64,000 nucleotides of DNA. Origin: an uncultured Lachnospiraceae bacterium (GTDB lineage: Bacteria > Bacillota > Clostridia > Lachnospirales > Lachnospiraceae). The position numbers and the translations under genes were made by a program. The stretch is taken from contig CAMUYQ010000003.1 of NCBI GenBank assembly GCA_947165025.1, positions 54,747 through 118,746 on the forward strand, in the 5' to 3' direction. Positions 6,805 to 34,744 of the stretch are shown here, one piece after another; the stretch's first letter is position 1, and each line of letters starts with the position of its first letter. The notes under the pieces were generated by a model. The model was given only the letters and a program-made list of their open reading frames with translations, was not told where the DNA came from and did no database searches.

Positions 6805-6808
6805 TTAA

Positions 6809-6982: not shown

Positions 6983-6994
6983 AGACATGCTTCT

Positions 6995-9574: not shown

Positions 9575-10351
9575 ATGTCAACAATAAGACAAACAGCAGG
9601 CAGTAATTATTTTGATGAGACCTATGGCGGAGGTAGTTCAGGCTATTCCAATGATTTTCTGTCAGGGTTAAGTGTAAATACCAACAGTAATGGCGGCGGT
9701 TCATTCGATCTGGCGGATTATGCCATGATCAAGAACGGATCATACGGCAAGCTTATGAAGGCGTACTACGGACAGGAAAAAGCACAGAAGGCCGTAGAAT
9801 CCAAGGAGAGCACTTCCAAGCTTACACAGATGGCCGGTAATGCCGGAGGAATGGCAAATGCAGCAAAAGCCCTGATGGATGATTCATTATGGCAGAAGAA
9901 GACCATAACGGAGAAGGACGAAAAGACCGGAGAGGAAACGACTAAAGAAGATTATGACTGGAAGGCCATCACAAAGGCTGTTAAGGGATTCATCGAAAAC
10001 TATAACAACACAGTGGCTGGTGCAGGTGAATCCGATACAAAGGGTGTGTTGAGGAATGCTTCCTTCATGGTCAAGACAACGGCGGCATACAAGAAAACAC
10101 TTGAAAAGGCCGGCATCACGATCACAAGCGGAAATAAGCTCGAACTTAACGAGGAAGACCTTAAGAATGCGGACATTTCAACGCTTAAGACACTGTTTAC
10201 GGGTTACAACTCTTTTGCCGACAAGATGGCGACAAAGGGTAACACGATAGCAAACGAAGCTGCAAGTGCCGGCGGAACATATACGAGCAATGGAACGTAT
10301 TCCAAAGCACTGTCACAGATAGTATCGACCAAGATCGATACCAAAGAATAA
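9575..10351 (+). CDS. Short FliD (flagellar cap, HAP2)-like protein
   Basis: Start at ATG 9575 behind SD AGGAGG (the track ORF starts at an upstream TTG). By eye, FIENYNNTV, SLWQKK, GVLRNAS and LEKAGITITSGNKLELNEEDLKNADISTLKTLFTG resemble the Firmicute FliD motifs FVDxYN, LWEEKAK, GLLRND and GITT...GKLxxDExKL...LF. No signal peptide. Confidence 0.45.
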   Translation: MSTIRQTAGSNYFDETYGGGSSGYSNDFLSGLSVNTNSNGGGSFDLADYAMIKNGSYGKLMKAYYGQEKAQKAVESKESTSKLTQMAGNAGGMANAAKALMDDSLWQKKTITEKDEKTGEETTKEDYDWKAITKAVKGFIENYNNTVAGAGESDTKGVLRNASFMVKTTAAYKKTLEKAGITITSGNKLELNEEDLKNADISTLKTLFTGYNSFADKMATKGNTIANEAASAGGTYTSNGTYSKALSQIVSTKIDTKE

Positions 10352-10396
10352 CAAGGATGTTAACGATAATCACGGAAGATTAAGGAGGATTAGACC

Positions 10397-11044
10397 ATGT
10401 CAATGAATGTAGGAACAGATTATACGAATTACAAAACCGGATACACTAACACAGAAAATCAGAAAAAGGATGTCGATATTTCCGAAAAGACTGCAGATCA
10501 GGGCAAGACTGCGTATGTCAAGGAAGGTGTTGTTTATGATAAGTCCGGAGAAAAAGTAGACAACTCAACATATTCGATCAATAAGATGAGCGCAACTGAC
10601 AGGGCTGCGATCGTCGATCAGCTGAAGGAAGATGCAAGGCAGAGGGAACAGCAGCTTGTAAGCATCGTGCACAGAACAATAGCTGATCAGGCCGGAGCAT
10701 ATGGAAAAGCTACCGGAAATGATATCTGGACACTCCTTTCTGGCGGAAAGGTTACTGTAACTGCAGCCGAAAAGGCACAGGCACAGAGAGATATCAGTGA
10801 AGACGGGTATTACGGTGTTAAGCAGACATCCCAGAGATTGTTTGACTTTGCCTGTGCGCTTGCCGGGGATGACGTGGATAAGATGAAAGAAATGCAGAAG
10901 GCCATGGAGAAGGGTTTCAAGCTTGCTACAAAATCATGGGGTAAGGAACTTCCGGGCATATGCGGAGAAACATTTGATGCGGCTAACAAACTGTTTGAGG
11001 AATATTACAGGTCAAAAGATCCTGGAGCAGCATTGTCAGAATAG
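10397..11044 (+). CDS. Hypothetical protein (cluster gene 2)
   Basis: SD AAGGAGGA 6 nt upstream; conserved-looking C-terminal helical segment GYYGVKQTSQRLFDFACALAGDD...EKGFKLATKSWGKELPGI; no TM helix or signal peptide. Confidence 0.7.
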   Translation: MSMNVGTDYTNYKTGYTNTENQKKDVDISEKTADQGKTAYVKEGVVYDKSGEKVDNSTYSINKMSATDRAAIVDQLKEDARQREQQLVSIVHRTIADQAGAYGKATGNDIWTLLSGGKVTVTAAEKAQAQRDISEDGYYGVKQTSQRLFDFACALAGDDVDKMKEMQKAMEKGFKLATKSWGKELPGICGETFDAANKLFEEYYRSKDPGAALSE

Positions 11045-11148
11045 GTGGCGTAAAGTTTTCATAGAAAACTTTGCGGCACGTTGGCCACGACTTCCACGCA
11101 GTGGAATTGTTATGTCGTGGCTCTCAAGAGTAGGAGAGGACTAAAGCC

Positions 11149-11736
11149 ATGAACATAACCATGAAAGGTGCCGGCCTTCTCGGAATGGGTAATCCCGGTC
11201 TTAAAAGTACACAGGACCGTCTGGACAGAATGGTCAAAAGGGATAATAAAATAGCGTTCTTTGAGCAGCAGAAAGAGAATCTGAAGACTATGAAGACGGA
11301 TTCGCTTGAAGATATCTCAAGAAAACTGGAAATGCTTCATGGTTATGATGATCAGATCGCGCTTGCAAAGGTTGAGTTCAATAACAGTCAGGTTTTCCAT
11401 ATGCTTGATGAAGCAAGGGAACTTGGCGAGAAGATTGCTGAAGCAGCCGAGAAGAATGCTCCTAAGACTCCAGAAGAAAGACGCGAGGATATGATCGAGG
11501 AGGTTACAGGAGTAGATATGGACGGTGGAATACTTGGAGAAGTGATGGACGAACTCGAGGATATCACGGAAGAGATGACGGAGAAAGCCGCGGAAGAGCT
11601 TGAAGAAATGACAGAGGAGACTCTTTCGGAGCAGGATCTGAAACAGGCATTGTATCAGGAACCTTTAAGCACTGAGGATCCTGTGGAAGATGATCTGTTG
11701 CAGGATAAGTATAAACGGATCGATTACCGGGTATAG
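11149..11736 (+). CDS. Hypothetical acidic coiled-coil-like protein (cluster gene 3)
   Basis: Complete ORF with SD GGAGAGGA; E/D-rich C-terminal half; structured upstream intergenic region (hairpins within 11050-11130). Confidence 0.65.
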   Translation: MNITMKGAGLLGMGNPGLKSTQDRLDRMVKRDNKIAFFEQQKENLKTMKTDSLEDISRKLEMLHGYDDQIALAKVEFNNSQVFHMLDEARELGEKIAEAAEKNAPKTPEERREDMIEEVTGVDMDGGILGEVMDELEDITEEMTEKAAEELEEMTEETLSEQDLKQALYQEPLSTEDPVEDDLLQDKYKRIDYRV

Positions 11737-11778
11737 GAAACGGATTTCCTATCATAATAGTCAAAGGAGGACGAAATC

Positions 11779-12327
11779 ATGGCATTATCAGGTATCATGA
11801 CAACATCGCTGTTGTCGGCAAATAATTCAATGAAGATCGCAAGAGTACAACAGGGCGCCAAGAACCAGATGGACGGACACGCCGGTGTGCTTGATGCAGA
11901 GATAAAGCTAGACAGCGCCCGGGGCGGGGATGTTAAGAAAAAACAGGAAGAGCTTGAGGAGACAAAGAAAAAGGCTTCCGAACTTGAAGAATCCACTATG
12001 AATACGCTTTCGGCTACATCCGATGATCTGAAGAAGGCGGCTAAAGACGATCTTGAAGCCAGAAGGGCAGAGAAGGCTGAAGAGAAGAAGAAAGCCGAAA
12101 AAGCAGCAGAGAAAAAGAGGGTGGAGAAGAAGGCTACCGAAGAGAGGATCGAGAAGATCGGAGAAGCAGCAACATCTGAAACCGCAGAGATATCTGATGG
12201 TGATCATAGTGTATCGGTAGAGGGAACATTGTTTGAAGGCGCCACGATCAATGTCGTTGTTGACGGTGTAACTCCAAGCACAGGCGCAACCGGAACAATA
12301 GGCGTATCGATGGACGAAAAAGCCTGA
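11779..12327 (+). CDS. Hypothetical K/E-rich protein with weak flagellin-N-terminus-like start (cluster gene 4)
   Basis: SD AAGGAGGA. N-terminus SLLSANNSMKIARVQQG...DGHAGVLDAEIK loosely recalls flagellin LSANN...DDAAGLAISEKM; the rest is K/E-rich low complexity. Confidence 0.6.
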   Translation: MALSGIMTTSLLSANNSMKIARVQQGAKNQMDGHAGVLDAEIKLDSARGGDVKKKQEELEETKKKASELEESTMNTLSATSDDLKKAAKDDLEARRAEKAEEKKKAEKAAEKKRVEKKATEERIEKIGEAATSETAEISDGDHSVSVEGTLFEGATINVVVDGVTPSTGATGTIGVSMDEKA

Positions 12328-12341
12328 CAGAGGGTTATAAT

Positions 12342-12923
12342 ATGAAAATCACGGGATCATACAATCAATATGAGCTGAATAATATGGAATCAACAGGCAG
12401 TAAGCCCAAGGCAGAAAAGGAATACGCCAACTATCTGATGAAGAAGTATCCGTGCCTGTCTCCAGGAAAGAATTCTGTTGTATCTGTAACAAGTGGATTA
12501 TTGCGTAAAGCCATGTCCGATGAGAAGACCGGTGAGTGGCTTGAGAGAGAATTATCAAAGGCTCCCGATTATATCAAACAGGCTCAACAGTCTGCGATTG
12601 CCCATGGTTCAACCCTGAAGTTCTGTTCTATAGAGTTCGGAGAGGAGTATTCCACGATGTGTACGCTTACTGTAACAGACGGCGGAGGAACTGATCCGGA
12701 CATTGATGAATGGCTTGAGAAGGTTAAGAAGGAAAGGGCTGAGCGAAAAGCCGAGGAAAAGAAACAGGAAGAAGAACGCGCAGAGGTTCGCCGACAGGAA
12801 ACAGAAACATATAAGATGGAACTAAAGGGCAGGGATCTTGAAGATCTGACAAGACAGTTCGCCATGAATCTGACAACACAAGCCTCAACGCTTTCGAACG
12901 GTTCAATTGATATAAAAGCGTGA
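12342..12923 (+). CDS. Hypothetical protein, member of an in-cluster paralogue family (cluster gene 5)
   Basis: Shares the pattern VS[VIL][ST]xxG...M..D.....W ... [IF]xFGE with the products of 16684-17607 and 17619-18254. Confidence 0.65.
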   Translation: MKITGSYNQYELNNMESTGSKPKAEKEYANYLMKKYPCLSPGKNSVVSVTSGLLRKAMSDEKTGEWLERELSKAPDYIKQAQQSAIAHGSTLKFCSIEFGEEYSTMCTLTVTDGGGTDPDIDEWLEKVKKERAERKAEEKKQEEERAEVRRQETETYKMELKGRDLEDLTRQFAMNLTTQASTLSNGSIDIKA

Positions 12924-12934
12924 TCATTTCAATG

Positions 12935-13035
12935 TAAACAATTATCTTCAAAATGCCGATATATATTTAAGATAAGTGATAATGTCGCCTGATCAGAAAA
13001 GGAGTTCGGATCAGTATTGTCAAGGAGGATGACAC
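12935..13035 (+). promoter_or_regulatory. Sigma-D/sigma-28-type promoter plus hag-like leader (GGA hairpin + GGA-containing SD)
   Basis: TAAA (12935-12938), 16-nt spacer, GCCGATAT (12955-12962). Hairpin 12989-13014 presents AAGGAG in its loop. SD AAGGAGGA at 13023-13030. Confidence 0.6.
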
Positions 13036-13689
13036 ATGAGCGGGATAAATGCGGTTAATAACGGTAAATCCGGTGAATTTCTACAGGGAATTCAGACGAC
13101 AATAAAGGAAAAACTGAATAATGCTATTGAAGAAGGAGCATTCTCCAACGCATTTGATGAAGGAGTAGCTGCAACCCTTTCAATATCGTCATCCGGGATC
13201 GCTCAGGCTAGTCGGGCAGAAAGAGAAGATATCATTCGACAATCTATAGTCCAGCTGGATGGCGGGTATAGAAAGTTTAATCTTACAGATGAAGAAGCCT
13301 GTATTCTCAAGAGTTTCCGGTTGGAAGAATACTATGATATCCGGAATAGAATGAAGAATGAGGATATTAACGCCTATAATGATCTTTTAAAGTCTGAAGA
13401 GATCGCCGACAAGAACTCCGACCCGAGCGCAAAGTTTAAAGTATATTCAAAAGCATATAACTGGGCTTACGGGGACGTTTTTGACAGAATCCATAAGGAA
13501 AATCCGGAAGTTGATATTTATGTAAGATCACCGGGGACGGAGGAAAATCATAACTATCAAATGAGAAATAACAGAACCTCACTTATTATTTCCACGGATG
13601 AAATAAAACTCCTTCAGTCAAGAAATAACAACGATAAGAAAGCACAGGAAGAACTGTGGAATAGGATCCTGGAAAAGATCCGATCATGA
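13036..13689 (+). CDS. Hypothetical protein (cluster gene 6)
   Basis: Complete 217-aa ORF with a strong SD; no recognisable motif. Confidence 0.65.
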   Translation: MSGINAVNNGKSGEFLQGIQTTIKEKLNNAIEEGAFSNAFDEGVAATLSISSSGIAQASRAEREDIIRQSIVQLDGGYRKFNLTDEEACILKSFRLEEYYDIRNRMKNEDINAYNDLLKSEEIADKNSDPSAKFKVYSKAYNWAYGDVFDRIHKENPEVDIYVRSPGTEENHNYQMRNNRTSLIISTDEIKLLQSRNNNDKKAQEELWNRILEKIRS

Positions 13690-13707
13690 GTTTGATGAAA
13701 TGACAAG

Positions 13708-13787
13708 TCGGGATATATTAAAGGAAAGCATTAATATCGCTTGATCCGAAAAGGAGTTCGGATTCATATGATCAAGGAGGATATCAC
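13708..13787 (+). promoter_or_regulatory. Second copy of the hag-like leader (GGA hexaloop hairpin + SD)
   Basis: Hairpin ATCCGAA-AAGGAG-TTCGGAT (13744-13763). SD AAGGAGGA at 13774-13781. A degenerate TCGGGATAT box at 13708 has no convincing -35. Confidence 0.5.
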
Positions 13788-14756
13788 ATGAAGGTCAATA
13801 ACACATCCTTTTTTATGAATGATGGCGTATTTGGAACATCGAATACATCGGAGCGTTCAAACAATAATCCATCCAAATCATCCGGAATATCGATAAACGG
13901 CAGTTCTTTTGCCATGCAGAATGATCCCATTGCGGCCAAGCGGGAGGAAGCCCGTAAGAAAGCAATGAAGGTCATCGGGGATGCGTTTGCTAATGACCGG
14001 AAGATTGATGAAGACCTTGATGCAAGAAGCGAGCATATCCGAAAGCTGAAAACTGTTCAGAATGACGCAAATAAAGTGATCAACGAAATAGAATCAGACC
14101 GTGCTGCTCTTCGAGATGAGTATGGTATTGATACGGACAGTCAGGAAGAGAAAGATCTCCAGCTTCTTGAGAAGGAATTCAGGGCACGCCAAAAAGGTTC
14201 TGATGTTCAACTTACAAAGGAGGATATGGAGGAGATCGCTAAGATTAAGGCAAAGGGCCTTACGGAATATCAGAGCAGGTCGATGGAAATGCTTGATTAT
14301 GAGAAACCATATCTTGATGCAGCATATGAGGCTAAAGCCGGTATAGAAGAGGAAAATCTAACCATTGCAGCAATAAAGCGTGAACTTCCGAAGAATGACG
14401 CAATGTTGAAAGCCCAGGATAAAGCCGATGCCATAGAAGATGCTGCATCAAAAGAGATCATGGGGATGCTTGTCGATGAAGCGAAGGAACAAATCGACGA
14501 AGAGGCAAAGGAGGCCGAAGAAAAGGCCAAGGAGAAACAGGAGAAGGAAGAAGAACTCCAGGAGAAGATCGATGCCGCAAGGGAAAGACGTAAGGAAGAG
14601 GAAGAACTCACTGAAGACATCGTGGAATCTGCCCAGGATCTTAATGTTACAACAGCTAACATAAATGATGCACAGAAGGACATTAAGGATATGATGAACA
14701 AACTGGCACTCGTAGAAGAAGATATGAAGGGTGCCGCTGTGGATCAAAAATCATAA
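13788..14756 (+). CDS. Hypothetical coiled-coil-like protein (cluster gene 7)
   Basis: S/N-rich N-terminus, then a long K/E/D-rich helical-looking region; 322 aa. Confidence 0.65.
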   Translation: MKVNNTSFFMNDGVFGTSNTSERSNNNPSKSSGISINGSSFAMQNDPIAAKREEARKKAMKVIGDAFANDRKIDEDLDARSEHIRKLKTVQNDANKVINEIESDRAALRDEYGIDTDSQEEKDLQLLEKEFRARQKGSDVQLTKEDMEEIAKIKAKGLTEYQSRSMEMLDYEKPYLDAAYEAKAGIEEENLTIAAIKRELPKNDAMLKAQDKADAIEDAASKEIMGMLVDEAKEQIDEEAKEAEEKAKEKQEKEEELQEKIDAARERRKEEEELTEDIVESAQDLNVTTANINDAQKDIKDMMNKLALVEEDMKGAAVDQKS

Positions 14757-14793
14757 AGCATATTGATTGGTACTACCATTCAATATAGATCGG

Positions 14794-14824
14794 TCGGGTC
14801 ACGGAAAACGTGGCCCGATTTTTT
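14794..14824 (+). terminator. Intrinsic terminator ending the first transcription block of the cluster
   Basis: 10-bp stem TCGGGTCACG/CGTGGCCCGA (one G-U pair), loop GAAAA, followed by TTTTTT. Confidence 0.7.
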
Positions 14825-14829
14825 GTTTA

Positions 14830-15010
14830 TAGTCGTTTTATGTCATATGATAGTCGATTTTTGAAATATATATAAATATGGGATTAAATTGGTCGATAGA
14901 TATTTCAGATGATTTATTTCTATAAGTGTATAAAGAATTTGCTAAGGAAAGCACCCCAGAGGATCCATGGAGAGGATCGTAATTATAATGAGGTGCTTTT
15001 ACTTTTTTAA
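14830..15010 (+). promoter_or_regulatory. Regulatory cassette: class-2 LytTR-type operator + TAAA-N15-GTCGATAG promoter + GGA leader with terminator-like hairpin
   Basis: TAGTCGTTTTA (14830) and TAGTCGATTT (14851), 21 bp apart. TAAA at 14873-14876 and GTCGATAG at 14892-14899. GCTAAGGAAAGC at 14941. Hairpin AAAGCACC/GGTGCTTT (14948-14999) followed by a T-run. Confidence 0.55.
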
Positions 15011-15056
15011 CAGGGGGAGTAGTAAGCCGGCAAGGGGAAACCGGAAGAAAAAACTT

Positions 15057-15764
15057 ATGAAAATTTGGATCTGTGACGGAGAGAAAAGTGATATTGATGA
15101 GTTGAAGAGCCTTATCGATTGTTACAAAAAGAAAAAAGATATAGGGAATGTTGAAGTAAGAGTGTTTGGTGATGCTGCTGAACTTATACAGGAAATGATT
15201 GACGGTGATGCTGCAGATATTATTATTTTAGATGCAATGATAGCGGAAAATGGAACTGAGGATCTTCTTAAAAAAATACGAACTAGGAATTCAGATTCAA
15301 AAGTCATTCTGCTTATTTCGGAAATGAGACATGTACTTGACGGATATCAGATGAAAACAGATTGGATTCTTTTGAAAGAAAACCCCTCTGACAGATTTTT
15401 TGAATGTATGGATAGGCTGTGTTCAGACATCCGGGAGAAACGAAAAATCCTTTCCTTGTCGTGTGTAGAGGGAGATTATGTTTTCAGCCGATCGAAAATA
15501 CTGTTTATAGAGAGTGAAGGTCATCGCTGTACAATTCATGAATTGAATGGAGATTATCACATATACCGTCGCCTGGATGAACTCGAAGAGAGAATAGATT
15601 CGCCGTATTTTATACGAATTCATCAAAGCTATCTAGTCAATGTCAAATACATACAACGTATAAGCAATTACGAACTAACAATGGCAGACGGTTGTATCTT
15701 GCCAGTATCTAAGGCGAGATATAAACAGGTTCAGCGTGAATACGCAGAAAATAAAATGAATTGA
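15057..15764 (+). CDS. Orphan LytTR-family regulator with a divergent receiver-like N-terminal domain
   Basis: C-terminal LytTR signature FIRIHQSYLVNVKYI. The N-terminal REC-like fold has ICDGE in place of the DD/DE pocket, and IIILDAMI. Start moved to ATG 15057 because the track start 14967 lies inside the leader hairpin. Confidence 0.75.
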   Translation: MKIWICDGEKSDIDELKSLIDCYKKKKDIGNVEVRVFGDAAELIQEMIDGDAADIIILDAMIAENGTEDLLKKIRTRNSDSKVILLISEMRHVLDGYQMKTDWILLKENPSDRFFECMDRLCSDIREKRKILSLSCVEGDYVFSRSKILFIESEGHRCTIHELNGDYHIYRRLDELEERIDSPYFIRIHQSYLVNVKYIQRISNYELTMADGCILPVSKARYKQVQREYAENKMN

Positions 15765-15766
15765 TA

Positions 15767-15910
15767 TAGTCGTTTTATGCATTATATGATCGATTCAGGA
15801 CATTCCTATAATATGAATTGCGAAATGTGCCGATAACTATATCAGATAATTGTATAAGCTAAGGATAGCAGCTGTGGTCAAAGGAATGAACTTTGATGAC
15901 AGTCTTTTTT
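15767..15910 (+). promoter_or_regulatory. Regulatory cassette, copy 2 (class-2 operator, GCCGATAA box, GGA leader, terminator-like hairpin)
   Basis: TAGTCGTTTTA at 15767 and TGATCGATTCA at 15787. GCCGATAA at 15829-15836. GCTA-AGGA-TAGC at 15858-15869. Hairpin 15872-15902 with GGA at its apex, then TCTTTTTT. Confidence 0.55.
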
Positions 15911-15926
15911 ATAAGTGGGGGGTAGT

Positions 15927-16502
15927 ATGAACATTTTTTTTGAGAAACCTGAAGAACAGAAGATAACCAGCCAAAGGGAGCTGGTGGAGCATTTACTCAA
16001 TAATTCCGGTGATGTTGATGAGATGTCGGAGGAAAATCGCAGAGAGATGGACGCCCGGATAATGGCAAAGCTTAAATCCGGAAAAAAGCTTTCGCAAAAG
16101 GAACTGGATTATCTTAGGAGAACAAACCCCATACTTTATGCTCAGGCAATGAGAGTACAGAGAATGGCGGAGGCGCTCGAAGAACAGCTTAAGCATGCGA
16201 GAAGCAAGGAGGAAGTTAACCAGATCTTTACTACTGCGTTGTCCGGTATATCCAAGAATGATCCTGACCGTGAATACCTTGTGGCTTCTTTCAATCGTAT
16301 TTCTACAGAGTTTCGCAAATCTAAAATGTATAATAAGCTGCTGACCACCACTGAGGAAGCAAGGAAGAAAAAGAAACAGGTAGATCCGGATAAGGATCTG
16401 TTTAAGGAAGATAATGATGACAAAGACGGGTTTGATCTGAGCAGTTGGAGTCCTTTACGTGAGTTGTATGAACAGATGCCATCTTTTGTGGCCGGAGCGT
16501 GA
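15927..16502 (+). CDS. Hypothetical helical protein (cluster gene 9)
   Basis: ATG 15927 behind a GGGGGG SD (the track ORF starts at an upstream GTG inside the SD); K/E-rich, no motif recognised. Confidence 0.65.
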   Translation: MNIFFEKPEEQKITSQRELVEHLLNNSGDVDEMSEENRREMDARIMAKLKSGKKLSQKELDYLRRTNPILYAQAMRVQRMAEALEEQLKHARSKEEVNQIFTTALSGISKNDPDREYLVASFNRISTEFRKSKMYNKLLTTTEEARKKKKQVDPDKDLFKEDNDDKDGFDLSSWSPLRELYEQMPSFVAGA

Positions 16503-16518
16503 CGATTCTTTGCTATTC

Positions 16519-16660
16519 TTGATGATTTATATGGACGATAGTCGTTTCATGGCATTTATATAATACAGACTTATAACATGTCGATAATAGTATCAGACAA
16601 CTGAATAAGCAAGGGATTGCGGCTGTGTTCAAAGGATTGAATTTTGGAGACAGTTTTTTT
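16519..16660 (+). promoter_or_regulatory. Regulatory cassette, copy 3
   Basis: Half-sites TTGATGATTTA (16519, degenerate) and TAGTCGTTTCA (16539). GTCGATAA at 16580-16587. GCAA-GGGA-TTGC at 16609-16620, which covaries with GCTA...TAGC. Hairpin 16623-16653 followed by TTTTTTT. Confidence 0.55.
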
Positions 16661-16683
16661 ATACGAAATAAGGGGGATTAAGT

Positions 16684-17607
16684 ATGACAGGAACAGCAGT
16701 AGCATCATGTTTCAATTACAGCAGTTACGCAAGTTATCAGACTTCAAGTAAGAAGACGGGTGAGGTATTGTTTTCCGATAGTATTGATGTCAATAGTGAC
16801 AAGGTGAAAAAAGAGGAGTCCCAGAGGGGATCTGTTATGGAGGAATACTATGCAAGAAAGCCTCAGTACAAAGAAAGGGCAAAAGAACGAGTTGATGGCG
16901 GTTATGTTGTTCTAAAGTGTGCCGGGATTTCCACCGAGGACATGGAGAACATGTCCATGAATGAGTTTAAAGATGTGATGAGCAAGGTTATTGCCGGGAT
17001 TCCGCATCATGCCACAAGACCATATGATGAAGAAACGGTACTTATTTCCGAAGAAGGTTGGGAAAACATGAAGAAGGATCCTGATTATGCAGCATATGTG
17101 GTGGGTCTGCTTCAGGAAGACAGATCCTTTGCAAATCCGTTCTTTGCGCTGGGGGATAAAGGAAGTTATATTGTGCAGCATTTTGGCGCATCTCCGGAGG
17201 ACTATCATGGAGTCGGATTTAGCAAGATATACGGTGGTACTGCTGCGGGAGCACGTTCGATGTATAACTCGGCGAAGGCAGGAGGAATTGAGACGCGTGG
17301 CCCACAGGCGGATCTTCAGCCTCCGTCAGACTATAATCTTTGGGAAGAGAGAAGAAAAGCAAAGAGGCGTAAAAGAAAAGAGCAGCTTGATGAAGAAATC
17401 ATGTCTCAATATTATCAGAAGAAGCATTTGAACGATCTGTATGAAAAGAAACTTTACGAGAACAAGGAACTTGCACGATCTCGCAGTGTGGCTGAAATGA
17501 TAGGATCACGGAGCAATACATCACATGCGCCGAAGCTTTCTATGGCAAGCGGTACGGCGTTTTATGAAGCGGCGTTTATGACATCTGATATAACTGAAAT
17601 GTTTTAG
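16684..17607 (+). CDS. Hypothetical protein, paralogue family member (cluster gene 10)
   Basis: LISEEGWENMKKDPDYAAYVV ... IVQHFGASPED aligns by eye with the next gene and with 12342-12923; basic KRRKRK segment near the C-terminus. Confidence 0.65.
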   Translation: MTGTAVASCFNYSSYASYQTSSKKTGEVLFSDSIDVNSDKVKKEESQRGSVMEEYYARKPQYKERAKERVDGGYVVLKCAGISTEDMENMSMNEFKDVMSKVIAGIPHHATRPYDEETVLISEEGWENMKKDPDYAAYVVGLLQEDRSFANPFFALGDKGSYIVQHFGASPEDYHGVGFSKIYGGTAAGARSMYNSAKAGGIETRGPQADLQPPSDYNLWEERRKAKRRKRKEQLDEEIMSQYYQKKHLNDLYEKKLYENKELARSRSVAEMIGSRSNTSHAPKLSMASGTAFYEAAFMTSDITEMF

Positions 17608-17618
17608 GAGCATCTTGT

Positions 17619-18254
17619 ATGAACAATATGATCACAATCAGCAGTATGAGTCGCGCATTCCGACAGACACCGGTTCGCAGACCAAGTAAAAATGATGTAA
17701 GAGGAGCATCATTTGCGGACTGCGTTCAAAAAGAAGCGGATAAACAGAACATTCCGAATAACGAAACTATGCGTAGTGTAGACGAATATCGGACATACCT
17801 GAACGATAAGCTTCAGAATCTCTCATTTGATTCATCAAACAGAATGGACACCACGATGGTATCCTTATCGGATGCTGGTATTAATCGTATGATGAAGGAT
17901 CCCGAATATGAGAAATGGGTTATCTGTCAGGTTAGTTCCATGATTTCAACAGATGATCCGTTCAGCGGTATGGCAGGCGGAAAGTTTATCATAATGCGCT
18001 TTGGAGAGAGAGAATCAGATCTTAGTGTAACAATAGAGAGAGCCGGTTTTTCAAACGGACAGGACAGTATGATGCCAAAGACTCATAAAGATGAAGATGA
18101 GAATTTCTGGAACAGACGGCAAAACCGGCTTGAAGAGCAGATTGATGTAAGTGAGGAGATTCGTGAAAGAGAAGCGGAAGGTCTTTCAATAATGATCAAT
18201 CCGTTTTTGGATATAAGCGGGAAAAAAGCCATTGAGGGTAATACCGCCAACTGA
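17619..18254 (+). CDS. Hypothetical protein, paralogue family member (cluster gene 11)
   Basis: SLSDAGINRMMKDPEYEKWVI ... IIMRFGERESD; starts 11 nt after the upstream stop codon. Confidence 0.65.
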   Translation: MNNMITISSMSRAFRQTPVRRPSKNDVRGASFADCVQKEADKQNIPNNETMRSVDEYRTYLNDKLQNLSFDSSNRMDTTMVSLSDAGINRMMKDPEYEKWVICQVSSMISTDDPFSGMAGGKFIIMRFGERESDLSVTIERAGFSNGQDSMMPKTHKDEDENFWNRRQNRLEEQIDVSEEIREREAEGLSIMINPFLDISGKKAIEGNTAN

Positions 18255-18256
18255 AA

Positions 18257-18403
18257 TAGTCGTTTTATGTCATATTATAGTCAGTTTATGCAGAGGGTGT
18301 TTAGTGGTTATACAGACACGACGATAAAACTTTCAGATCAATATAAGAGCTAAGGATAGCGGCTGTGTTCAAAGGAGTGAACCTTGATCACGGTCGTTTT
18401 TTT
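18257..18403 (+). promoter_or_regulatory. Regulatory cassette, copy 4
   Basis: TAGTCGTTTTA (18257) and TAGTCAGTTTA (18278), 21 bp apart. GACGATAA at 18320-18327. GCTAAGGATAGC at 18349-18360. Imperfect hairpin 18359-18395 followed by TTTTTTT. Confidence 0.55.
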
Positions 18404-18488
18404 GTAATCAAAAATAAGATACCGCTCGGACCTTTCCGGAGAGCGGTGCGGCTCTGACTGACAGATGAGTCGCGGAAAGGGGGACAAT

Positions 18489-20678
18489 ATGTCATTTGCA
18501 GTACAAACAAGTTTTAATCAAACGTATCAGTATGGGAGCTTTGGCTCTAAATCTAATCGTGGAGAGGATTCTATAGGAAGAGAATTCATGGGAAGCGCTA
18601 CTTCACGAACCACTTCATCTGATAAGGGTGAAAATATCGGCGTTATGACGATTGGTAACATAGGGTATATTGCCAAATATGCGGACTCATCGACAGAAGA
18701 AGATCCTATCATCAAAGTCGGAGATTATGAGGTCAGGGTAAATGATGTTGATCCGCATAATGCTACTAAGGTAGAGATGTTTGCGCTGATGAGCTATATG
18801 GATGATAAAGGTCTCATCGAGAACACCGGCATGAAATCATTTGGAAAAATGACAGCGTATGGGGCACAGGCGGAATATAACGGATTTTGTAGTGATCTAT
18901 CCGATCCTGAGCTGGCATGGACAAAGAACAGAGACTGGACAGCGATACTGCAAAACGCAAAAGAAACATTTTTTGGTATTCCGCAGGCATATAATCAAGG
19001 GCTTAACTGCGAGAACATTGTTGCCGGACTTGAGCGTTGGGCAGAGACAAGGTGTGATAAAGGCGAGAATATAATTACAGAGGTATCCGGTGAGAGTGAA
19101 GTGTCAAGTGATATGGATGCCACATGTATTCCGGTTGTCGGCAAAGGATATGGCGATCCGGCCGCATACACCAGGTGTATTACAGCTAATATCAAGACCA
19201 AGGAAGCCTATGTACAGCAGAATTCCAACGGAGAAGTGATTTATTCGTACAGGGAGACGGAGCAGTCATTCAATATCATCATCAATTCTGACGGTAAGGA
19301 TAAAACATACACGATAACCGGTATTGACGAAAACGGCGAGGAGTTTGAAAGAGCGTTTGATCCATATGATCTGGATCCTAAAGATATGGATTATCCCGAG
19401 TTCGCTGCGATGTGCATGTACATCAGACAGACGGATGAAACAGCTGATCTGATAGCTAGCAGCTATTTTACGGATACAAGCTATTTCGACGGGATATTTG
19501 ACAGAGGTGATCGTGTCAGCCTGCTGGGACAGTATGCTGAAGAGTATGGTAATTCTGAGCCGTCCCTTGCAAGCCTTGCGAATAAGATATTTGAAGCTAT
19601 AAGTACATTTTTCGACAGAGCAATGAGGGGAAACGGATTCTCTGAAGAAGCATTCTCACTCCTGTTTGCGGACCTTGATGATATCGAGACGCAGGAAAAG
19701 ATCAGTGCGCTCAAAAACGGATATACCTATTCTGACAACACAACCGATCCGGTATCCGAAACAATTGTTTCAAAACACAATCAGTACACGGATCCTGATA
19801 CCGGTGAGATTGTTCCGGTGAATATCAGATATATCACAGCCTATACTGATGAGGGGATCTCCTGTAAGGAAATAAAAGATGAAGGGGGAAAAATATCACA
19901 GAGAGATTTATGGAGTCTATCTTATGATTCTCCGGACAGTTATGAAAAGGTTCAGGAGTTCTTAAAGAGTTTTTCGAAGGATCAGAATCTTACATTTGCT
20001 CCACAGGAGAAGTTTTGGAAGGATTTCATGAAGGATGATTTTGATATTGACGGATTCCGTGCATATTACGATTCCACCGATAACGGAAAGATAAATGTAG
20101 AGAAGGGATTACAGGAGGGCAAGAATCTGGGAGATCTCTTGACCGAGCCTTTTGCCGAATATATCAACAACACTCATTTTATCGGCAAGGTATTTACGGA
20201 GCAGGAAATGTGGGATAACTGGAATGCCCAAATAGAAGCAAACCAGAGGACTTTGGGCTTAAACTGTACAGGAGATATAGCATCCACAGATTCCAGGGAT
20301 AAGGTCCGTGAAATGAGAGAACAGGCATTTTTGGGGATTGGAAAGAATGCTTCGGAGAACGTAAAAAAAGCCTGGCTGGAGGCTGCAGATGAAATTGGAA
20401 TGGACGGACAGGGATTATCGGCTACCGGAACACTTGATCATATCCCGCAGTTTATGATACAGCGATTTATCCGCCAGTATAACGGATATGATCCGGATGA
20501 TGTTCTGGGGAGTACGGTAAGCTCGGCCATCCAGGCGGCTCAGGACGCTATTTATGCTCTTGACCATCCTCTCGAGCCTGATACAACAAGGAGTTCGAAA
20601 GTACTTGCGGCGAGGGAGAAAGAGAGAGCTTTCTATGAGCGTTTTATAGAAAAACTCATGGGAATGAGAGCGCTCTAA
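18489..20678 (+). CDS. Large hypothetical protein (729 aa from ATG 18489; cluster gene 12)
   Basis: ATG 18489 behind SD AAAGGGGGA (the track ORF starts 24 nt upstream); no TM helix, signal peptide or catalytic motif recognised. Confidence 0.65.
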   Translation: MSFAVQTSFNQTYQYGSFGSKSNRGEDSIGREFMGSATSRTTSSDKGENIGVMTIGNIGYIAKYADSSTEEDPIIKVGDYEVRVNDVDPHNATKVEMFALMSYMDDKGLIENTGMKSFGKMTAYGAQAEYNGFCSDLSDPELAWTKNRDWTAILQNAKETFFGIPQAYNQGLNCENIVAGLERWAETRCDKGENIITEVSGESEVSSDMDATCIPVVGKGYGDPAAYTRCITANIKTKEAYVQQNSNGEVIYSYRETEQSFNIIINSDGKDKTYTITGIDENGEEFERAFDPYDLDPKDMDYPEFAAMCMYIRQTDETADLIASSYFTDTSYFDGIFDRGDRVSLLGQYAEEYGNSEPSLASLANKIFEAISTFFDRAMRGNGFSEEAFSLLFADLDDIETQEKISALKNGYTYSDNTTDPVSETIVSKHNQYTDPDTGEIVPVNIRYITAYTDEGISCKEIKDEGGKISQRDLWSLSYDSPDSYEKVQEFLKSFSKDQNLTFAPQEKFWKDFMKDDFDIDGFRAYYDSTDNGKINVEKGLQEGKNLGDLLTEPFAEYINNTHFIGKVFTEQEMWDNWNAQIEANQRTLGLNCTGDIASTDSRDKVREMREQAFLGIGKNASENVKKAWLEAADEIGMDGQGLSATGTLDHIPQFMIQRFIRQYNGYDPDDVLGSTVSSAIQAAQDAIYALDHPLEPDTTRSSKVLAAREKERAFYERFIEKLMGMRAL

Positions 20679-20684
20679 AACTTC

Positions 20685-20766
20685 GCCAATATATTCAAGT
20701 CGAAATTTAATAAGAGTTATGGAAAGTGGCTGTGTTCAAAGGATTGAACTTTGGACACAGCTTTTT
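20685..20766 (+). promoter_or_regulatory. Partial regulatory cassette, copy 5 (GCCAATAT box, GGA-apex terminator-like hairpin)
   Basis: GCCAATAT at 20685-20692 with no TAAA at the proper spacing and no clear LytTR repeats. Hairpin GCTGTGTTCAAAGG/CTTTGGACACAGC (20729-20761) followed by TTTTT. Confidence 0.4.
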
Positions 20767-20821
20767 CGTACCAAACAAAGCATAAACAGACAGGAAAACA
20801 AGGACTGGAGGGTAGTGATTA

Positions 20822-22135
20822 ATGAAAATTGCAGACAGTACAGTAAACATGATGTCGGGGAGAAACTATACTCAGACCGGGATGAAGAACGGGGTGGCCG
20901 GTTATGAAAGCAGCTTCACGGGAATGATCAACAGATATAACACCCATAGGGATAATGCTCTTGCAAAGGACACTTATCAATCCGGCAAGGATAATGGTGG
21001 GATGGGTTCTTACAATATGGATGATATCGGGTATTTCAAGGGACTCGGAAAAATCACATCTGGAAGCCTATTTGGAGCGGGAGCAGGTGCGTCAGCTTTT
21101 CAAAACAACACTCTGGCCGCGATGTTTAAGAGATTCGCATCTTTTGGAATGATAGGCGGCGCGGCTATTGGCGGATACTCCTCGAGTATGGTCACGTATT
21201 CCGAAACCGAAGAGACAGGGTTTCATGCGTGCGGTAAGGCATGTACAGAGGACGGCCGGACGATCGATTTTAATGTAAATATCCTGATGAGCAGGAGCTA
21301 TATGGAATATATGAACGTAAGGATCCCGACTATGGCTGATGCCCTGTTTGATCCGCTTATTGTCAATATAGGATCTGATACAGCGGATGTGCGGGATCAG
21401 ACTTTTAAGTTTGATCTTGATGCCGACGGGTGTGAGGATGAAATATCCATGCTTGGTAAGTGCTCGGGATTTCTTGCTTTGGATAAAGACGGAAACGGAA
21501 AAATCGATGACGGCAATGAATTGTTCGGAACAAAGAGCGGTGACGGATTCGGTGAGCTTCGGGAATATGACAGTGATGGTAATGGATGGATCGATGAGAA
21601 CGACGAGATATTCTCAAAACTTAAGGTATGGTGCAAGGATGAGAACGGTAATGACGTACTCATGGATCTGAAGGAGGCAGACATCGGAGCTATATATCTG
21701 GGAGAACAGCGGACGGAGTTTACACTTGGCGGGGCAGACGGTTACAGAGACGGAGTGATCAGATCCACAGGGGTATTTCTTCGCGAGAGTGGAGGCGCAG
21801 GTACAATACAGCATGTGGACTTGTCCATGAAACAAAACGGTCTGGGTACAAAGGTCAGCGGTGATGATACAGTTATGGATGTAAGTACATCCGACAACCG
21901 AAATCAGAGCAATGCCACCAGGAGACAGGAAGAAAGACGGCGGCAGGAAGCAAAGGCAAGAAGGAGAAAAGCTGATGATAAGGCAGCTGCGGATGCCATG
22001 TACAGAAGACAGATGGAAAATAGGAAATACATGAATAAGCTTCAGGAGAGGCGATTTATGGAGAGAAAGGAATACCATGAGGAACTGAGCGAGGAGCAGA
22101 TGGAGAAACTGCTTGAAGATCAGGAAGCAGTATAA
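20822..22135 (+). CDS. Hypothetical protein with EF-hand-like DxDxDG calcium-binding repeats and a basic C-terminal tail (cluster gene 13)
   Basis: DLDADGCEDEI, LDKDGNGKIDDGNELFG, YDSDGNGWIDENDEIF, CKDENGNDVL; C-terminal RRQEERRRQEAKARRRK; no signal peptide. Confidence 0.7.
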   Translation: MKIADSTVNMMSGRNYTQTGMKNGVAGYESSFTGMINRYNTHRDNALAKDTYQSGKDNGGMGSYNMDDIGYFKGLGKITSGSLFGAGAGASAFQNNTLAAMFKRFASFGMIGGAAIGGYSSSMVTYSETEETGFHACGKACTEDGRTIDFNVNILMSRSYMEYMNVRIPTMADALFDPLIVNIGSDTADVRDQTFKFDLDADGCEDEISMLGKCSGFLALDKDGNGKIDDGNELFGTKSGDGFGELREYDSDGNGWIDENDEIFSKLKVWCKDENGNDVLMDLKEADIGAIYLGEQRTEFTLGGADGYRDGVIRSTGVFLRESGGAGTIQHVDLSMKQNGLGTKVSGDDTVMDVSTSDNRNQSNATRRQEERRRQEAKARRRKADDKAAADAMYRRQMENRKYMNKLQERRFMERKEYHEELSEEQMEKLLEDQEAV

Positions 22136-22231: not shown

Positions 22232-24625
22232 TCAATGCCCTATATCGTCAAACAAATCATATACCGGTGTGCGTGTAGGCTCCGGATCGTAATCGTAGTC
22301 ATAATCATAATCAGTACGGTCATCGGCTGAGTGCGAGGCAGTATAATCCCTTTCGGTTATTCCTGCATCAGATCTCGAGAGCGTCTCCTCTTTAACCGGA
22401 GTCTTCGGTTCAAGAGCCTTAAGAGCTGCTATATACGGTTCTTGCGTAAAGCTTCGATCCATTGCAAGTTTAGAGTCACGGTCGATCATTTTGATATTTC
22501 GATATTCGCCTGTAACGCAGTTCAAGTTAACGGAAGCTGCCTTCAACAAGCCTTCCAGAATACGGAGCTGATGCAGATAATCATCGTAATTGTTCTCTGA
22601 CAGCCCAAGATTAAGAGCCTTCTGCTTCAGCTCTTTGTATCTTAGGATCTGCATTGTTGTTTCCATATCGACAGACTGAATTATCTCACTAAGAGCATTT
22701 GTTTTTTCTTCCTCAGTCAGTTGGGGGTCCTGCTCGCTGTCTTTGTTGTGAAGATGTCTGTATTTTGCTTCGAGATAACGTTCCTCTTTATTTTTCTCAT
22801 ATTCAGCATAGGATATAAGAACTTCCGGCCTTTGAAGGTCCTTGTTACTTAAGAATCTGATGATCTGCTCGGCTTCAGCAAACGTAAGCTCATTATACGG
22901 ACAGGTGAGTTTCCATCTGTCAGAGTTAGTGTTTAACAAGTTGTAAAGATCGACTTTCTGCTTGCTTGTCATAGGCTCCAGCAGTGCATGCTCATGGCGT
23001 ATTGTCGACTTATCGGGGTATGTGAGCAGTCGATCGATCTGAGAAAGATCAAAGCCTTTAAGTACACGCTCTAAGCTTTGAAGACCCCTGATCACAGATT
23101 CTTTTTCCTGATAGCACTTTACCGAACCCTCCAGTTTATCGATATACTTCTTAAGATTACTCCAGGTCTTGCCTATTTCCCGGAATCGACTTCTGATATC
23201 AGCATGAGTGTATAAACCAAGAAGGTTTGCCGCATACATGGATCGCTGCATCCTCAGGATCTTCTTGTCTATATCAGAGATCACAGGATGAGATCTGAGG
23301 AGTTCCTCGCGATCTTTATCTTTAAATAGGGACATGATTGTATCAATGATCAGCTCTTTGAAGTATTTAAGAACTTTGATGGCATAAAGAAATACTATCT
23401 CCAGATTCGATCTCCGGCAGCCGTTTTCATTGTATCTGCTTATATTCATGTTGAATTCGTTTGTGCGTGGATCTTTTGATATATAATCGATGCGATCGAT
23501 CCTGTACTGCTGTTCAGCCCTCTTTTCCTCCTGAAGAACCTGTCTTTCAGGAATCGGTTTGCCGCCATTATCAAATCCTATGCCGGAATCCCAGCCCATT
23601 CGCTGGCATATGGCTTTTCTCATATATTTTTCACCAAGTGCTATATCCCTTACCTGGAACGGCAAAATGCTGTCTTTCATATGAAGATCATGGCATATGA
23701 ACAGAACATGATCAGGTGTCTGCGAAATGTCATATCTGCTGATCCCGGTTTTCGGATCCGTGTATTGCTCCGACATGAACTCCATAAATCCCTGCCAGCT
23801 TGTAACACCGTGTTCCTTGCATTCCGCTAGAGCGCTATCAATATCTTGTCTGATGCGGTCTTTATTGCTCGTACCGTCATGACTCTTTGCTCTTACATAT
23901 TCTTCAGCCACATCCGGGACATCCGGCGTATGATTTTTATGATCGATATCCGCATCAAGCAGTATGGGAAGATCATGTGCGAGGCTTATCTCGTCATTGA
24001 GATTGCGGAGCTTACGTCGTAGTGCTTTGTTCATGCATATTTTATGAGTGCCGTCCATAGAGAATGCACAGACAACGATATGGTTATGGACATGATCCGT
24101 ATTCATGTGTGTTGATACAACACATTGAAATCCGGGAAAAGCTCTTTTGGCATATTCAACCCCGATCCTGTGAACAAGAAGCGGATCCGGAGGTGTCCCG
24201 CCATGTTCTTTACCGGGAAATGACTGTATAAAGTGTTCAGCATCTATCGGTTTCTTTTCGACGGTAATGCGTCTGCCAGTCTTCTTGTCTGTATATGTAG
24301 CGTACTTGGCGCTTCCTCTGCGCCTTCTGCCATTACCGTTTTCTTCATACTTATACTTGGACGCTGCAAAGTCAACAGAGGCCATTTCTTCGATACAGTT
24401 GATGCCGGTAACAAGGACTGTCTTATCACCGTCAAGTTCCATAACCGTCTTTTCGAGATTTTTAGCATACTTAAGAACAACATCGAAGTTGTCATCTTCG
24501 ACTACGGTGTCCTTCGCTTCATATGACTTATCCGTCAAAGTGTTCTTCGTTTCATCGTTAACGTAGTTGATGCATGAAGCAACGCCTTTGGAACTATGTA
24601 TTGGGATGTTTTTAAGTATAGCCAT
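22232..24625 (-). CDS. Relaxase/mobilisation nuclease-domain protein (MobA/VirD2 superfamily) with a long C-terminal extension
   Basis: N-terminal relaxase region with His triad HMNTDHVHNHIVV; 797 aa; convergent with the unknown-function cluster. Confidence 0.8.
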   Translation of the reverse strand: MAILKNIPIHSSKGVASCINYVNDETKNTLTDKSYEAKDTVVEDDNFDVVLKYAKNLEKTVMELDGDKTVLVTGINCIEEMASVDFAASKYKYEENGNGRRRRGSAKYATYTDKKTGRRITVEKKPIDAEHFIQSFPGKEHGGTPPDPLLVHRIGVEYAKRAFPGFQCVVSTHMNTDHVHNHIVVCAFSMDGTHKICMNKALRRKLRNLNDEISLAHDLPILLDADIDHKNHTPDVPDVAEEYVRAKSHDGTSNKDRIRQDIDSALAECKEHGVTSWQGFMEFMSEQYTDPKTGISRYDISQTPDHVLFICHDLHMKDSILPFQVRDIALGEKYMRKAICQRMGWDSGIGFDNGGKPIPERQVLQEEKRAEQQYRIDRIDYISKDPRTNEFNMNISRYNENGCRRSNLEIVFLYAIKVLKYFKELIIDTIMSLFKDKDREELLRSHPVISDIDKKILRMQRSMYAANLLGLYTHADIRSRFREIGKTWSNLKKYIDKLEGSVKCYQEKESVIRGLQSLERVLKGFDLSQIDRLLTYPDKSTIRHEHALLEPMTSKQKVDLYNLLNTNSDRWKLTCPYNELTFAEAEQIIRFLSNKDLQRPEVLISYAEYEKNKEERYLEAKYRHLHNKDSEQDPQLTEEEKTNALSEIIQSVDMETTMQILRYKELKQKALNLGLSENNYDDYLHQLRILEGLLKAASVNLNCVTGEYRNIKMIDRDSKLAMDRSFTQEPYIAALKALEPKTPVKEETLSRSDAGITERDYTASHSADDRTDYDYDYDYDPEPTRTPVYDLFDDIGH

Positions 24626-34733: not shown

Positions 34734-34744
34734 AGGTCTTAAAA

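Follow-up and report, generated by a model that had tools for sequence, protein, structure and literature searches.

What joins thirteen consecutive genes, most of them without a family assignment, that lie on an island at a tRNA gene and are preceded by control signals of the kind known from late flagellar genes? The question is raised by a stretch of 64,000 nt (the window) from an uncultured Lachnospiraceae bacterium, in which the listing of open reading frames (ORFs) gave 13 consecutive ORFs on the + strand between 9575 and 22135, named here g1 to g13, in agreement with the thirteen same-strand genes claimed before. The original prediction for this DNA had proposed a transferable set of flagellum-co-expressed proteins gated by its own LytTR circuit. 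The regulatory part of that proposal held up, as seen in conserved sigma-D promoters, LytTR repeats and GGA hairpins, in a leader RNA shared with a flagellin operon and in relatives of FliD_C and FlxA, while the transferable part had to be narrowed to mobilisable, there being no conjugation apparatus among the island ORFs scanned. We favour, at somewhat short of an even chance, the reading that the cluster is a modular, horizontally mobile accessory regulon of the late flagellar class, whose products are most likely exported, with the flagellar type III route as the leading candidate.

The evidence comes largely from 43 related loci, which were compared after their ORFs had been clustered into families. 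In these loci, 30 of 264 cluster-family genes but one of 354 other genes have a sigma-D-type promoter pattern upstream, and an intergenic tally placed the leader RNA motif described below before 48 of the 264 and none of the 354. GGA hairpins with stems of at least 5 bp were observed in 33% of the non-redundant cluster leaders vs 8% of the others (p=7.5e-8). The N-terminal pattern M[KRNSI][IV][NTGQ] is carried by 38 of 165 cluster-family proteins and by 11 of 325 neighbours (8.5-fold, p=4e-11), the N-termini including MKVNNTSFF, MNINLNTTF, MSINLY and MKITGSYNQY, which we take to resemble the starts of flagellin, FlgL and FlgM (for g7, flagellin and FlgL). This wiring of sigma-D promoters, LytTR repeats and GGA hairpins is conserved upstream of homologous genes in divergent Lachnospiraceae, and the gene system is widespread in rumen and gut members of the family.

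A link to flagella was located in the metagenome contig L156 (5030-5260, - strand), where a TAAA-N16-GCCGATAG promoter and the same leader RNA head an operon of a DUF6240 protein (972 aa), a flagellin with Flagellin_N and Flagellin_C, and FliS, so that DUF6240 may be another member of this regulon. In L017, a flagellin 3′ end and fliS lie about 4.3 kb upstream of the cluster, and a chemoreceptor gene is close by in L001. Homologues come from named hosts that include Agathobacter, Pseudobutyrivibrio, Roseburia and Oribacterium, which are motile genera.

The synteny across the 43 loci is modular. DUF8329, SPM, LytTR regulators with or without kinases, g7, g1 and g9 recur, while g10/g11 and about ten further families without assignment come and go; g12 paralogues are duplicated, and the loci usually sit in variable or defence islands. 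The g10/g11 pair is accessory, as it is not present in L001 and L008, and g9 is the conserved partner of the g8-type regulator. The genes of the window are as follows.

9575-10351, + strand: g1, FliD_C-like protein, 258 aa
10397-11044, + strand: g2, no family assignment, polar N-terminus
11149-11736, + strand: g3, no family assignment, very acidic
11779-12327, + strand: g4, FlxA-like protein (homologue annotation)
12342-12923, + strand: g5, DUF6033 protein (Pfam E=1.2e-8, above the gathering score)
13036-13689, + strand: g6 coding sequence (CDS), leader beginning at 12985
13788-14756, + strand: g7 CDS, leader beginning at 13735, N-terminus MKVNNTSFF
14792-14820, + strand: intrinsic terminator ending the g1-g7 block
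14967-15764, + strand: g8, orphan regulator with REC and LytTR domains (Pfam)
15927-16502, + strand: g9, basic helical protein, no family assignment (placed by synteny)
16684-17607, + strand: g10, no family assignment
17619-18254, + strand: g11, no family assignment
18489-20678, + strand: g12, DUF8329 protein, 729 aa (PF27009 on homologues)
20822-22135, + strand: g13, SPM protein, 437 aa (PF26745 'SPM' on homologues)

The starts of g9 and g12 were probably misplaced and are corrected here to the ATGs at 15927 and 18489 (homologues of g12 have 728-729 aa), while that of g8 is possibly 15057 rather than 14967. By hydropathy no signal peptide or transmembrane helix was found in the 13 proteins, whose maximum in a 19-residue Kyte-Doolittle window is 1.24 vs 2.52 in the neighbouring kinase; the absence of both had been claimed from the letters. 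Scans of all 13 against Pfam, NCBIfam and PHROGs gave LytTR and a weak REC in g8, DUF6033 in g5, and sub-threshold FliD_C in g1 and FapA in g4 from Pfam, with no meaningful matches in NCBIfam or PHROGs. FapA, T2SSF, MLLE and similar Pfam matches were dismissed, being below threshold and in coiled-coil or low-complexity regions. Only five of the 13 proteins are assigned to families (g1, g4, g5, g12 and g13).

The promoters and LytTR repeats of the region are listed next.

7000-7026, + strand: type-A LytTR repeat TTCACG-N15-TTCACG, 21-nt period, before the two-component operon
9263-9289 and 9366-9392, + strand: two type-A LytTR repeats before g1
12935-12962, + strand: sigma-D/sigma-28-type promoter TAAA-N16-GCCGATAT before g6 (pattern match)
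14830-14899, + strand: type-B LytTR repeats, TAGTCGTTTTATG twice with a 21-nt period, abutting the g8 promoter TAAA-N15-GTCGATAG
within 15767-15836, + strand: type-B LytTR box before g9
15829-15836, + strand: -10 box GCCGATAA before g9, the second exact GCCGATAW
from 16539, + strand: type-B LytTR box and GTCGATAA box (16580-16587) before g10
from 18257, + strand: two type-B LytTR boxes and GACGATAA box before g12

The canonical TAAA-N16 promoter reported before is thus present at 12935-12962, and L008 carries it unchanged; other family genes have equivalents upstream, and perfect consensus copies occur in Agathobacter-type and other distant loci. Window-wide, GCCGATAW gave 12 matches vs 4 expected, while sigma-70-type promoter matches in the region (29 vs 35 expected) are not enriched. 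Degenerate xCGATAR boxes resembling a -10 element can be read before g1, g8, g10 and g12, and less perfect forms of the whole promoter stand before g8, g9, g10 and g12. The LytTR-type repeats, also noticed before, fall into two classes with a 21-nt period, both above expectation: TTCACG-N15-TTCAMG has three sites (7000, 9263 and 9366) vs 0.67 expected, and TAGTCRNTTYAYG has six matches vs 1.95 expected, all on the + strand in the intergenic regions before g8, g9, g10 and g12. The type-B TAGTCGTTTTATG repeats abut the -35 position of the promoters of these four genes.

This arrangement is like the agr-, com- and blp-type LytTR circuits in its HPK10-type kinase, its LytTR regulator and its 21-nt-period repeats beside promoters; however, the target promoters here look sigma-D type, not sigma-A type, and no pheromone or processing gene was found. 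Agathobacter-type loci (L029, L030, L031, L033, L026 and L038) carry tandem AAGTAGGATAA repeats with an 11-nt period before their sigma-D-like promoters instead of LytTR boxes, suggesting a different activator there.

The leaders that follow these promoters are of two kinds.

from 12985, + strand: g6 leader, a GGA-loop hairpin followed by the Shine-Dalgarno sequence CAAGGAGGA
from 13735, + strand: g7 leader, almost a duplicate of that of g6: 8-bp stem, GGA loop and Shine-Dalgarno sequence CAAGGAGGA
14939-15012, + strand: variant GGA/terminator leader of g8 (weak hit of the covariance model, CM)
15856-15915, + strand: leader RNA copy 1 (g9), apex UCAAAGGAAUGA (CM 73.6 bits, fold z-score -3.8)
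16607-16666, + strand: leader RNA copy 2 (g10) (CM)
18347-18406, + strand: leader RNA copy 3 (g12) (CM, fold z-score -4.9)
20714-20773, + strand: leader RNA copy 4 (g13), between g12 and g13 without a promoter of its own (CM 74.1 bits, fold z-score -7.7)

Both GGA hairpins and AAGGAGG Shine-Dalgarno sequences are present, with enrichment in the family. The g6 and g7 leaders agree with the GGA leader hairpins and GGA-containing Shine-Dalgarno sequences of the original prediction, and the family-wide enrichment given above extends the point. Their motifs resemble the predicted CsrA sites of Clostridioides difficile fliC, TGACAAGGATGT and CTAAGGAGGG (PMC8523840).

The second kind is an RNA of about 60 nt before g9, g10, g12 and g13, with the variant before g8. 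Its parts are, in order, GCUAAGGAUAGC, where AAGGAU is presented by a stem of 3 bp, a hairpin of 13 bp with the apex UCAAAGGAUUGA, and a U-run, and it is a predicted intrinsic terminator placed between promoter and CDS, a shape that had been missed before. The loci contain 62 instances of the apical motif, without exception in sense orientation, and a pattern scan of metagenomes gave 132 leader matches, 114 of them with a U-run, the genes 3′ of which are mostly DUF8329, LytTR, g9 and SPM. A CM built from 20 length-matched copies finds the four window copies at 71-76 bits together with 94 further copies. In the alignment fitted to the CM, 13 of 16 pairs have compensatory changes and the covariation score is 0.447 vs 0.184 for shuffles, none of 500 shuffles reaching 0.447; the pairing collapses once the partners are slid. 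With a plain MAFFT alignment, in which the 3′ arms were misaligned, RNAalifold did not recover the long stem, and per-sequence minimum free energy folds, which are circular as a covariation test, gave 77 distinct stem sequences. Fold z-scores of the copies range from -2.7 to -7.7, every copy has a U-run, and Rfam 15 returned only the tRNA, with no leader match at the gathering threshold or at E<=1. The leader was also observed before a giant protein of 2100-2400 aa with a Sec signal and the look of a leucine-rich-repeat (LRR)/BspA-type surface protein (L067, L100, L102, L106, L110, L128 and L144).

Two GGA motifs stand about 20 nt apart in this leader, a spacing that suits a CsrA dimer, and lie 30-60 nt upstream of the Shine-Dalgarno sequence. 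In the known flagellin-FliW-CsrA checkpoint of Bacillus subtilis and C. difficile, a sigma-D promoter is combined with GGA in a leader hairpin and in the Shine-Dalgarno sequence, a layout that the g6 and g7 leaders copy. In the main leader class, by contrast, both GGA motifs are in or before the terminator hairpin and far from the Shine-Dalgarno sequence, suggesting attenuation or sequestration rather than occlusion of the ribosome; the leader would thus probably act on termination or on CsrA availability and not on ribosome binding.

Two genes appear to be kin to flagellar families. The short FliD-like protein seen by eye is g1, which scores 18.8 bits against FliD_C (PF07195; Pfam cut-off 25.4), while its Agathobacter-type homologue in L029 scores 36.9 bits, above the cut-off. 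The g1 family comprises more than 1000 proteins of about 250 aa, with FliD_C on most of the 120 matches listed, and its profile matches Pseudomonas aeruginosa FliD (PDB 5fhy) through FV..YN and GIt..dG.LeiDe.kL motifs (Vk.FV..YN and GIt...g.L.lDe.kL in the g1 family). The AlphaFold2 (AF2) model of g1 has a confident compact core at residues 80-233, which superposes on the FliD D1 region, with residues 1-76 and 234-258 predicted disordered, and the three best PDB matches of this model by Foldseek are all FliD (probability 0.95-0.97). The filament cap FliD (HAP2) itself differs in having about 400-800 aa, FliD_N and a D2/D3 head, whereas g1 gave no FliD_N match in Pfam and no D2/D3 head domains in the AF2 model, which has the core only. 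FliD is also normally encoded beside fliS or flaG; g1 lies outside any flagellar operon, its neighbours being DUF6033, FlxA-like and LytTR two-component genes.

Over 75 aa, the g4 protein shares 55% identity with L044:9203-9988, whose annotation is FlxA (PF14282), and the best FlxA match among family members has E=3.8e-15. Escherichia coli FlxA is encoded on the Qin prophage, FliA-dependent and not needed for motility, and so offers a likeness of horizontally acquired, flagellar-controlled and dispensable cargo; it differs in being one small gene, set against a FlxA-like gene among at least 13 co-regulated genes here, and g4 of the window is below the FlxA cut-off of Pfam. Minimal versions of the set were noticed at L044:5952-10753 and L045:148-1721, where a LytTR regulator and kinase are followed by DUF6033, FlxA-like and FliD_C-only genes, and this LytTR-DUF6033-FlxA-FliD_C set may be the core from which larger clusters were built.

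The last gene, g13, encodes a Gly-rich N-fragment of 177 aa, the dipeptide Asp177-Pro178, a self-processing module (SPM) with three Ca loops that extends to around residue 345, and a basic tail rich in K/R/E. The SPM of Neisseria FrpC (PDB 6sjw, E=4e-6) aligns with residues 196-277, and Asp177-Pro178, the only Asp-Pro of the protein, is at the position of the FrpC scissile bond, which places the putative scissile bond at nt 21350-21355. Across 20 homologues, the most distant of them 41% identical, neither the Asp-Pro nor any of the three EF-hand-like loops changes, whereas the sequence ahead of the Asp-Pro is variable. Matches to Gram-negative plasmid SPMs start at g13 residues 175-177 in six of nine cases and further upstream in the other three. 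The EF-hand-like repeats described earlier are thus the three Ca loops of an SPM, a putatively self-cleaving module that had been overlooked.

The SPM cuts its Asp-Pro bond upon Ca2+ binding, with an affinity of about 150 uM, and the anhydride left behind reacts with a lysine close by to give an isopeptide; in FrpC it is active only outside the cell, and it has been described only from large type-I-secreted RTX proteins of Gram-negative bacteria (Kuban et al., PMC7078468). By this likeness g13 is a predicted Ca2+-dependent self-processing 'clip-and-link' protein, and an extracellular destination is supported because the FrpC SPM acts only outside the cell. Compared with the RTX modules (FrpC, ApxIVA; NeissLock), g13 shares the Asp-Pro at the module start, the three EF-hand-like loops and the 6sjw and PF26745 matches, but it has 437 aa, belongs to a Gram-positive lineage and carries no RTX repeats among the Pfam matches or by eye, type I secretion components likewise not being seen. 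The fourth Ca site (FrpC D419/D421) reads as N and G in g13 and is thus only partly conserved. The N-fragment (1-177) is Gly/Ala-rich with GxxxG-rich hydrophobic stretches. Lysine makes up 7-13% of most cluster proteins other than g13.

Relatives of g12 number 454, all named ones from Lachnospiraceae. Its residues 1-222 are predicted disordered, and the AF2 model, which is of low to moderate confidence, gave no PDB fold match by Foldseek; only weak Pur-alpha-like beta4-alpha repeats appeared, on which no interpretation is placed. A motif (V/I)DPxNxxxxExxALxxY was seen after beta strands at about residues 75-110 and 285-315 of g12 and in two further families (c6 and c15) of L030 and L031, and its recurrence hints at a shared small domain.

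That the cluster is carried on a tRNA-integrated element between a two-component system and a relaxase/integrase core was borne out by Pfam and by repeats of the tRNA 3′ end.

6720-6805, + strand: tRNA-Leu(CAG) (ARAGORN and Rfam)
6782-6805: left att-like repeat, the last 24 nt of the tRNA-Leu 3′ end (repeat search)
7100-7852, + strand: REC and LytTR regulator of the two-component operon (Pfam)
7849-9255, + strand: GHKL (HATPase_c_5) kinase with multiple transmembrane segments (Pfam, hydropathy)
22232-24625, - strand: MobA/VirD2 relaxase (Pfam)
25429-26490, + strand: ParM/ALP-like protein, ALP_N (Pfam)
27137-28270, + strand: tyrosine integrase (Pfam)
34523-34546, + strand: right-hand copy 1 of the tRNA-Leu 3′ end, 92% identical
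46611-46634: right-hand copy 2 of the tRNA-Leu 3′ end, 83% identical

An integrase, a relaxase and insertion at a tRNA gene with direct repeats make this an integrative mobilisable element, with the 13-gene cluster as cargo at tRNA-Leu. No type IV secretion or coupling protein genes were detected among the island ORFs scanned, and the island is therefore regarded as mobilisable and not self-conjugative. Its right border is ambiguous; towards its right end the window consists of ordinary chromosome that carries dnaG and sigA. Each att-like copy is followed by about 230 nt of homologous sequence (34519-34754 and 46607-46843, 85-91% identical), suggesting tandem accretion of islands at tRNA-Leu. 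The ORFs scanned between 34.5 and 46.6 kb include a hexapeptide transferase, a hydrolase, an ArsP permease and a GGDEF protein, with no integrase among them. Cluster relatives were found neither in viral contigs nor in PLSDB plasmids, where the sole matches are the Gram-negative SPM domains.

Taken as a mechanism, the favoured accessory regulon would work as follows. The AgrC/AgrA-type kinase and LytTR regulator (7100-9255) would act through binding at the TTCACG repeats and switch on g1-g5, while host sigma-D RNA polymerase would read the TAAA-N16-GCCGATAT promoter for g6-g7. The orphan regulator g8 would bind the TAGTCGTTTTATG repeats against the weak sigma-D-like promoters of g8, g9, g10-11 and g12, the transcripts of which, like the g12-g13 junction, would start with the GGA terminator leader of about 60 nt. 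Since this leader folds as an intrinsic terminator, expression would need a signal after initiation, and the match of its GGA motifs to CsrA sites makes the flagellin-FliW-CsrA checkpoint the likeliest input. The proteins, with g1 (headless and FliD D1-like) and g4 (FlxA-like) as flagellum-derived components, would then leave through the flagellar type III apparatus of the host, as late substrates. Once they are outside, Ca2+ would fold the SPM of g13, which would cut Asp177-Pro178, and the aspartic anhydride would couple the N-fragment of 177 residues to lysines on partner or target proteins. The type III route is the most economical because about a dozen proteins have no signal peptide and polar, disordered N-termini, and two come from flagellar-regulon families. 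In its fullest form, a mobile extension of the flagellar system of Gram-positive bacteria in which a modular set of type III-exported proteins assembles, or becomes covalently attached, outside the cell by Ca2+-dependent Asp-Pro clip-and-link chemistry and the GGA-terminator RNA joins a LytTR quorum input to the FliW-CsrA checkpoint, the proposal is possible but doubtful.

Several observations weigh against the favoured regulon. Only two exact GCCGATAW boxes lie on the + strand of the cluster intergenic regions (12955 and 15829), the remaining promoters being degenerate, and to our knowledge activator-dependent sigma-28 promoters are unusual. Type III export signals are, as far as we know, not recognisable from sequence. 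The g1 and g4 of the window itself are below the Pfam thresholds, and the Foldseek E-values of g1 are weak (0.2-0.35). Classical CsrA occlusion does not apply to the leader of about 60 nt, because its GGA sites are so far upstream of the Shine-Dalgarno sequence. Flagellar, sigD, csrA and fliW genes were not found in the window or beside most loci, and as claimed before, the window ORFs scanned include no flagellar structural or export gene; tblastn of the loci with CsrA and flagellin queries gave flagellin matches in L156 and L017 alone and no CsrA match. One locus is assigned to Faecalimonas. Lastly, the leader is not restricted to genes without a signal peptide, since it precedes the giant Sec-signal LRR protein.

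This last point, together with the extracellular site that an SPM implies and the lack of any export gene in the loci, also speaks for products that are produced alongside flagella, controlled by sigma-D and LytTR, and work outside the cell, but leave by another route (regulated lysis, a holin-like path or an exporter encoded elsewhere) and form or modify a surface or matrix structure unrelated to the filament; the sigma-D regulon of B. subtilis includes autolysins as well. We consider this fairly improbable, since signal peptides and transmembrane segments are missing from all 13 proteins, flagellin- and FlgM-like N-termini are enriched, and the FliD_C and FlxA kinship points to the flagellar pathway. 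An unlikely alternative is that the products stay in the cytoplasm and manipulate host motility, the headless FliD- and FlxA-like proteins being decoys for flagellar chaperones or FliW and the terminated GGA leaders being CsrA sponges. It would account for a g1 without head domains, for four to five GGA leaders per island, each with a terminator at its end, and for the dispensable, FliA-dependent FlxA on an E. coli prophage; yet a Ca2+-dependent SPM with invariant sites would idle at cytosolic Ca2+, a large and diverse repertoire with a 729-aa DUF8329 protein is hard to explain by decoys, and a CDS with a good Shine-Dalgarno sequence follows each leader.

LytTR/HPK10 systems typically control bacteriocins, and the cluster might be a quorum-regulated arsenal resembling polymorphic toxins or bacteriocins and serving competition among bacteria, with modules that strains exchange and with g13 delivering a glycine-zipper N-fragment. 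Module content that varies widely, duplicated g12 paralogues, GxxxG-rich hydrophobic stretches in the g13 N-fragment and a location in defence or variable islands would fit, but the family scans recognised no toxin domain, immunity pattern, leader-peptide/ABC exporter or pheromone gene, and the sigma-D promoters and flagellar homologues would be left unexplained, so that we rate this reading as quite unlikely. It is very improbable that the proteins are structural parts of a phage, a conjugation apparatus or a spore coat, in spite of the mobile element, the low-complexity, Lys- and Tyr-rich proteins and the cross-linking chemistry. There is no significant PHROGs match, no relative in viral contigs and no type IV secretion system gene among those scanned, and the promoters are sigma-D type with none of sporulation type; these readings were dropped for want of a supporting match.

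The closest precedent for the favoured export of an accessory regulon is provided by Cia, FlaC, FspA and Fed of Campylobacter jejuni, which are non-flagellar, sigma-28-dependent proteins exported by the flagellar type III apparatus (PMC2764114, PMC5223770). They resemble the cluster proteins in having no Sec signal and carry an N-terminal signal for type III export; they differ in being encoded by scattered chromosomal genes of a Gram-negative pathogen, with no LytTR activators, leader RNA, SPM or mobile island, and their export has been demonstrated, whereas export of the cluster proteins is what we infer. Each ingredient thus has a precedent, in the sigma-28 secreted proteins of Campylobacter, the prophage FlxA, the FrpC SPM, the Hag-FliW-CsrA checkpoint and agr-like LytTR circuits. 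The combination, its mobility, an SPM in a Gram-positive non-RTX protein and a terminator-shaped GGA leader RNA appear to be undescribed; no full-text mention of DUF6033, DUF8329, PF27009, PF26745 or this cluster was found in the literature.

The flagella of Lachnospiraceae are major immune-active structures of the gut, and if the reading is right, a transferable set of flagellum-co-expressed and perhaps secreted proteins would alter the exposure of host tissues and neighbouring microbes. It would also be the first Gram-positive, non-RTX setting for SPM anhydride chemistry, a present-day tool of protein engineering, would assign functions to four orphan families (DUF6033, DUF8329, FlxA-like and FliD_C-only), and would add a structured leader RNA that is new, with no fewer than 94 copies outside the seed loci, possibly the first CsrA attenuator or sponge in Firmicutes. 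Cultivable relatives are among the hosts (Lachnospiraceae NK4A179, Pseudobutyrivibrio and Agathobacter), making these hypotheses directly testable.

Further features of the window were observed beside the cluster. Second-messenger genes are dense (2654-6586, 45056-46516 and 52708-55913) and comprise a GAF-GGDEF-EAL protein beside the tRNA, a PAS-GGDEF protein, and a cNMP-binding protein with a PAS-adenylate/guanylate cyclase. A 1020-aa protein (49576-52638) combines SH3b, NlpC/P60, Amidase_3 and S9/alpha-beta-hydrolase domains, with no sigma-D box seen upstream. A run of G5A5-6 units (GGGGGAAAAAATGGGGGAAAAATTGGGGGAAAAATTGGGGGATAAG) lies at 6925-6985, just within the island beside the tRNA/att site, and an 11-nt unit, ACTACCAAGAG, is repeated in four tandem copies (30560-30602) within an SLFN/AlbA_2-HATPase_c_4-HTH gene (29363-30784).

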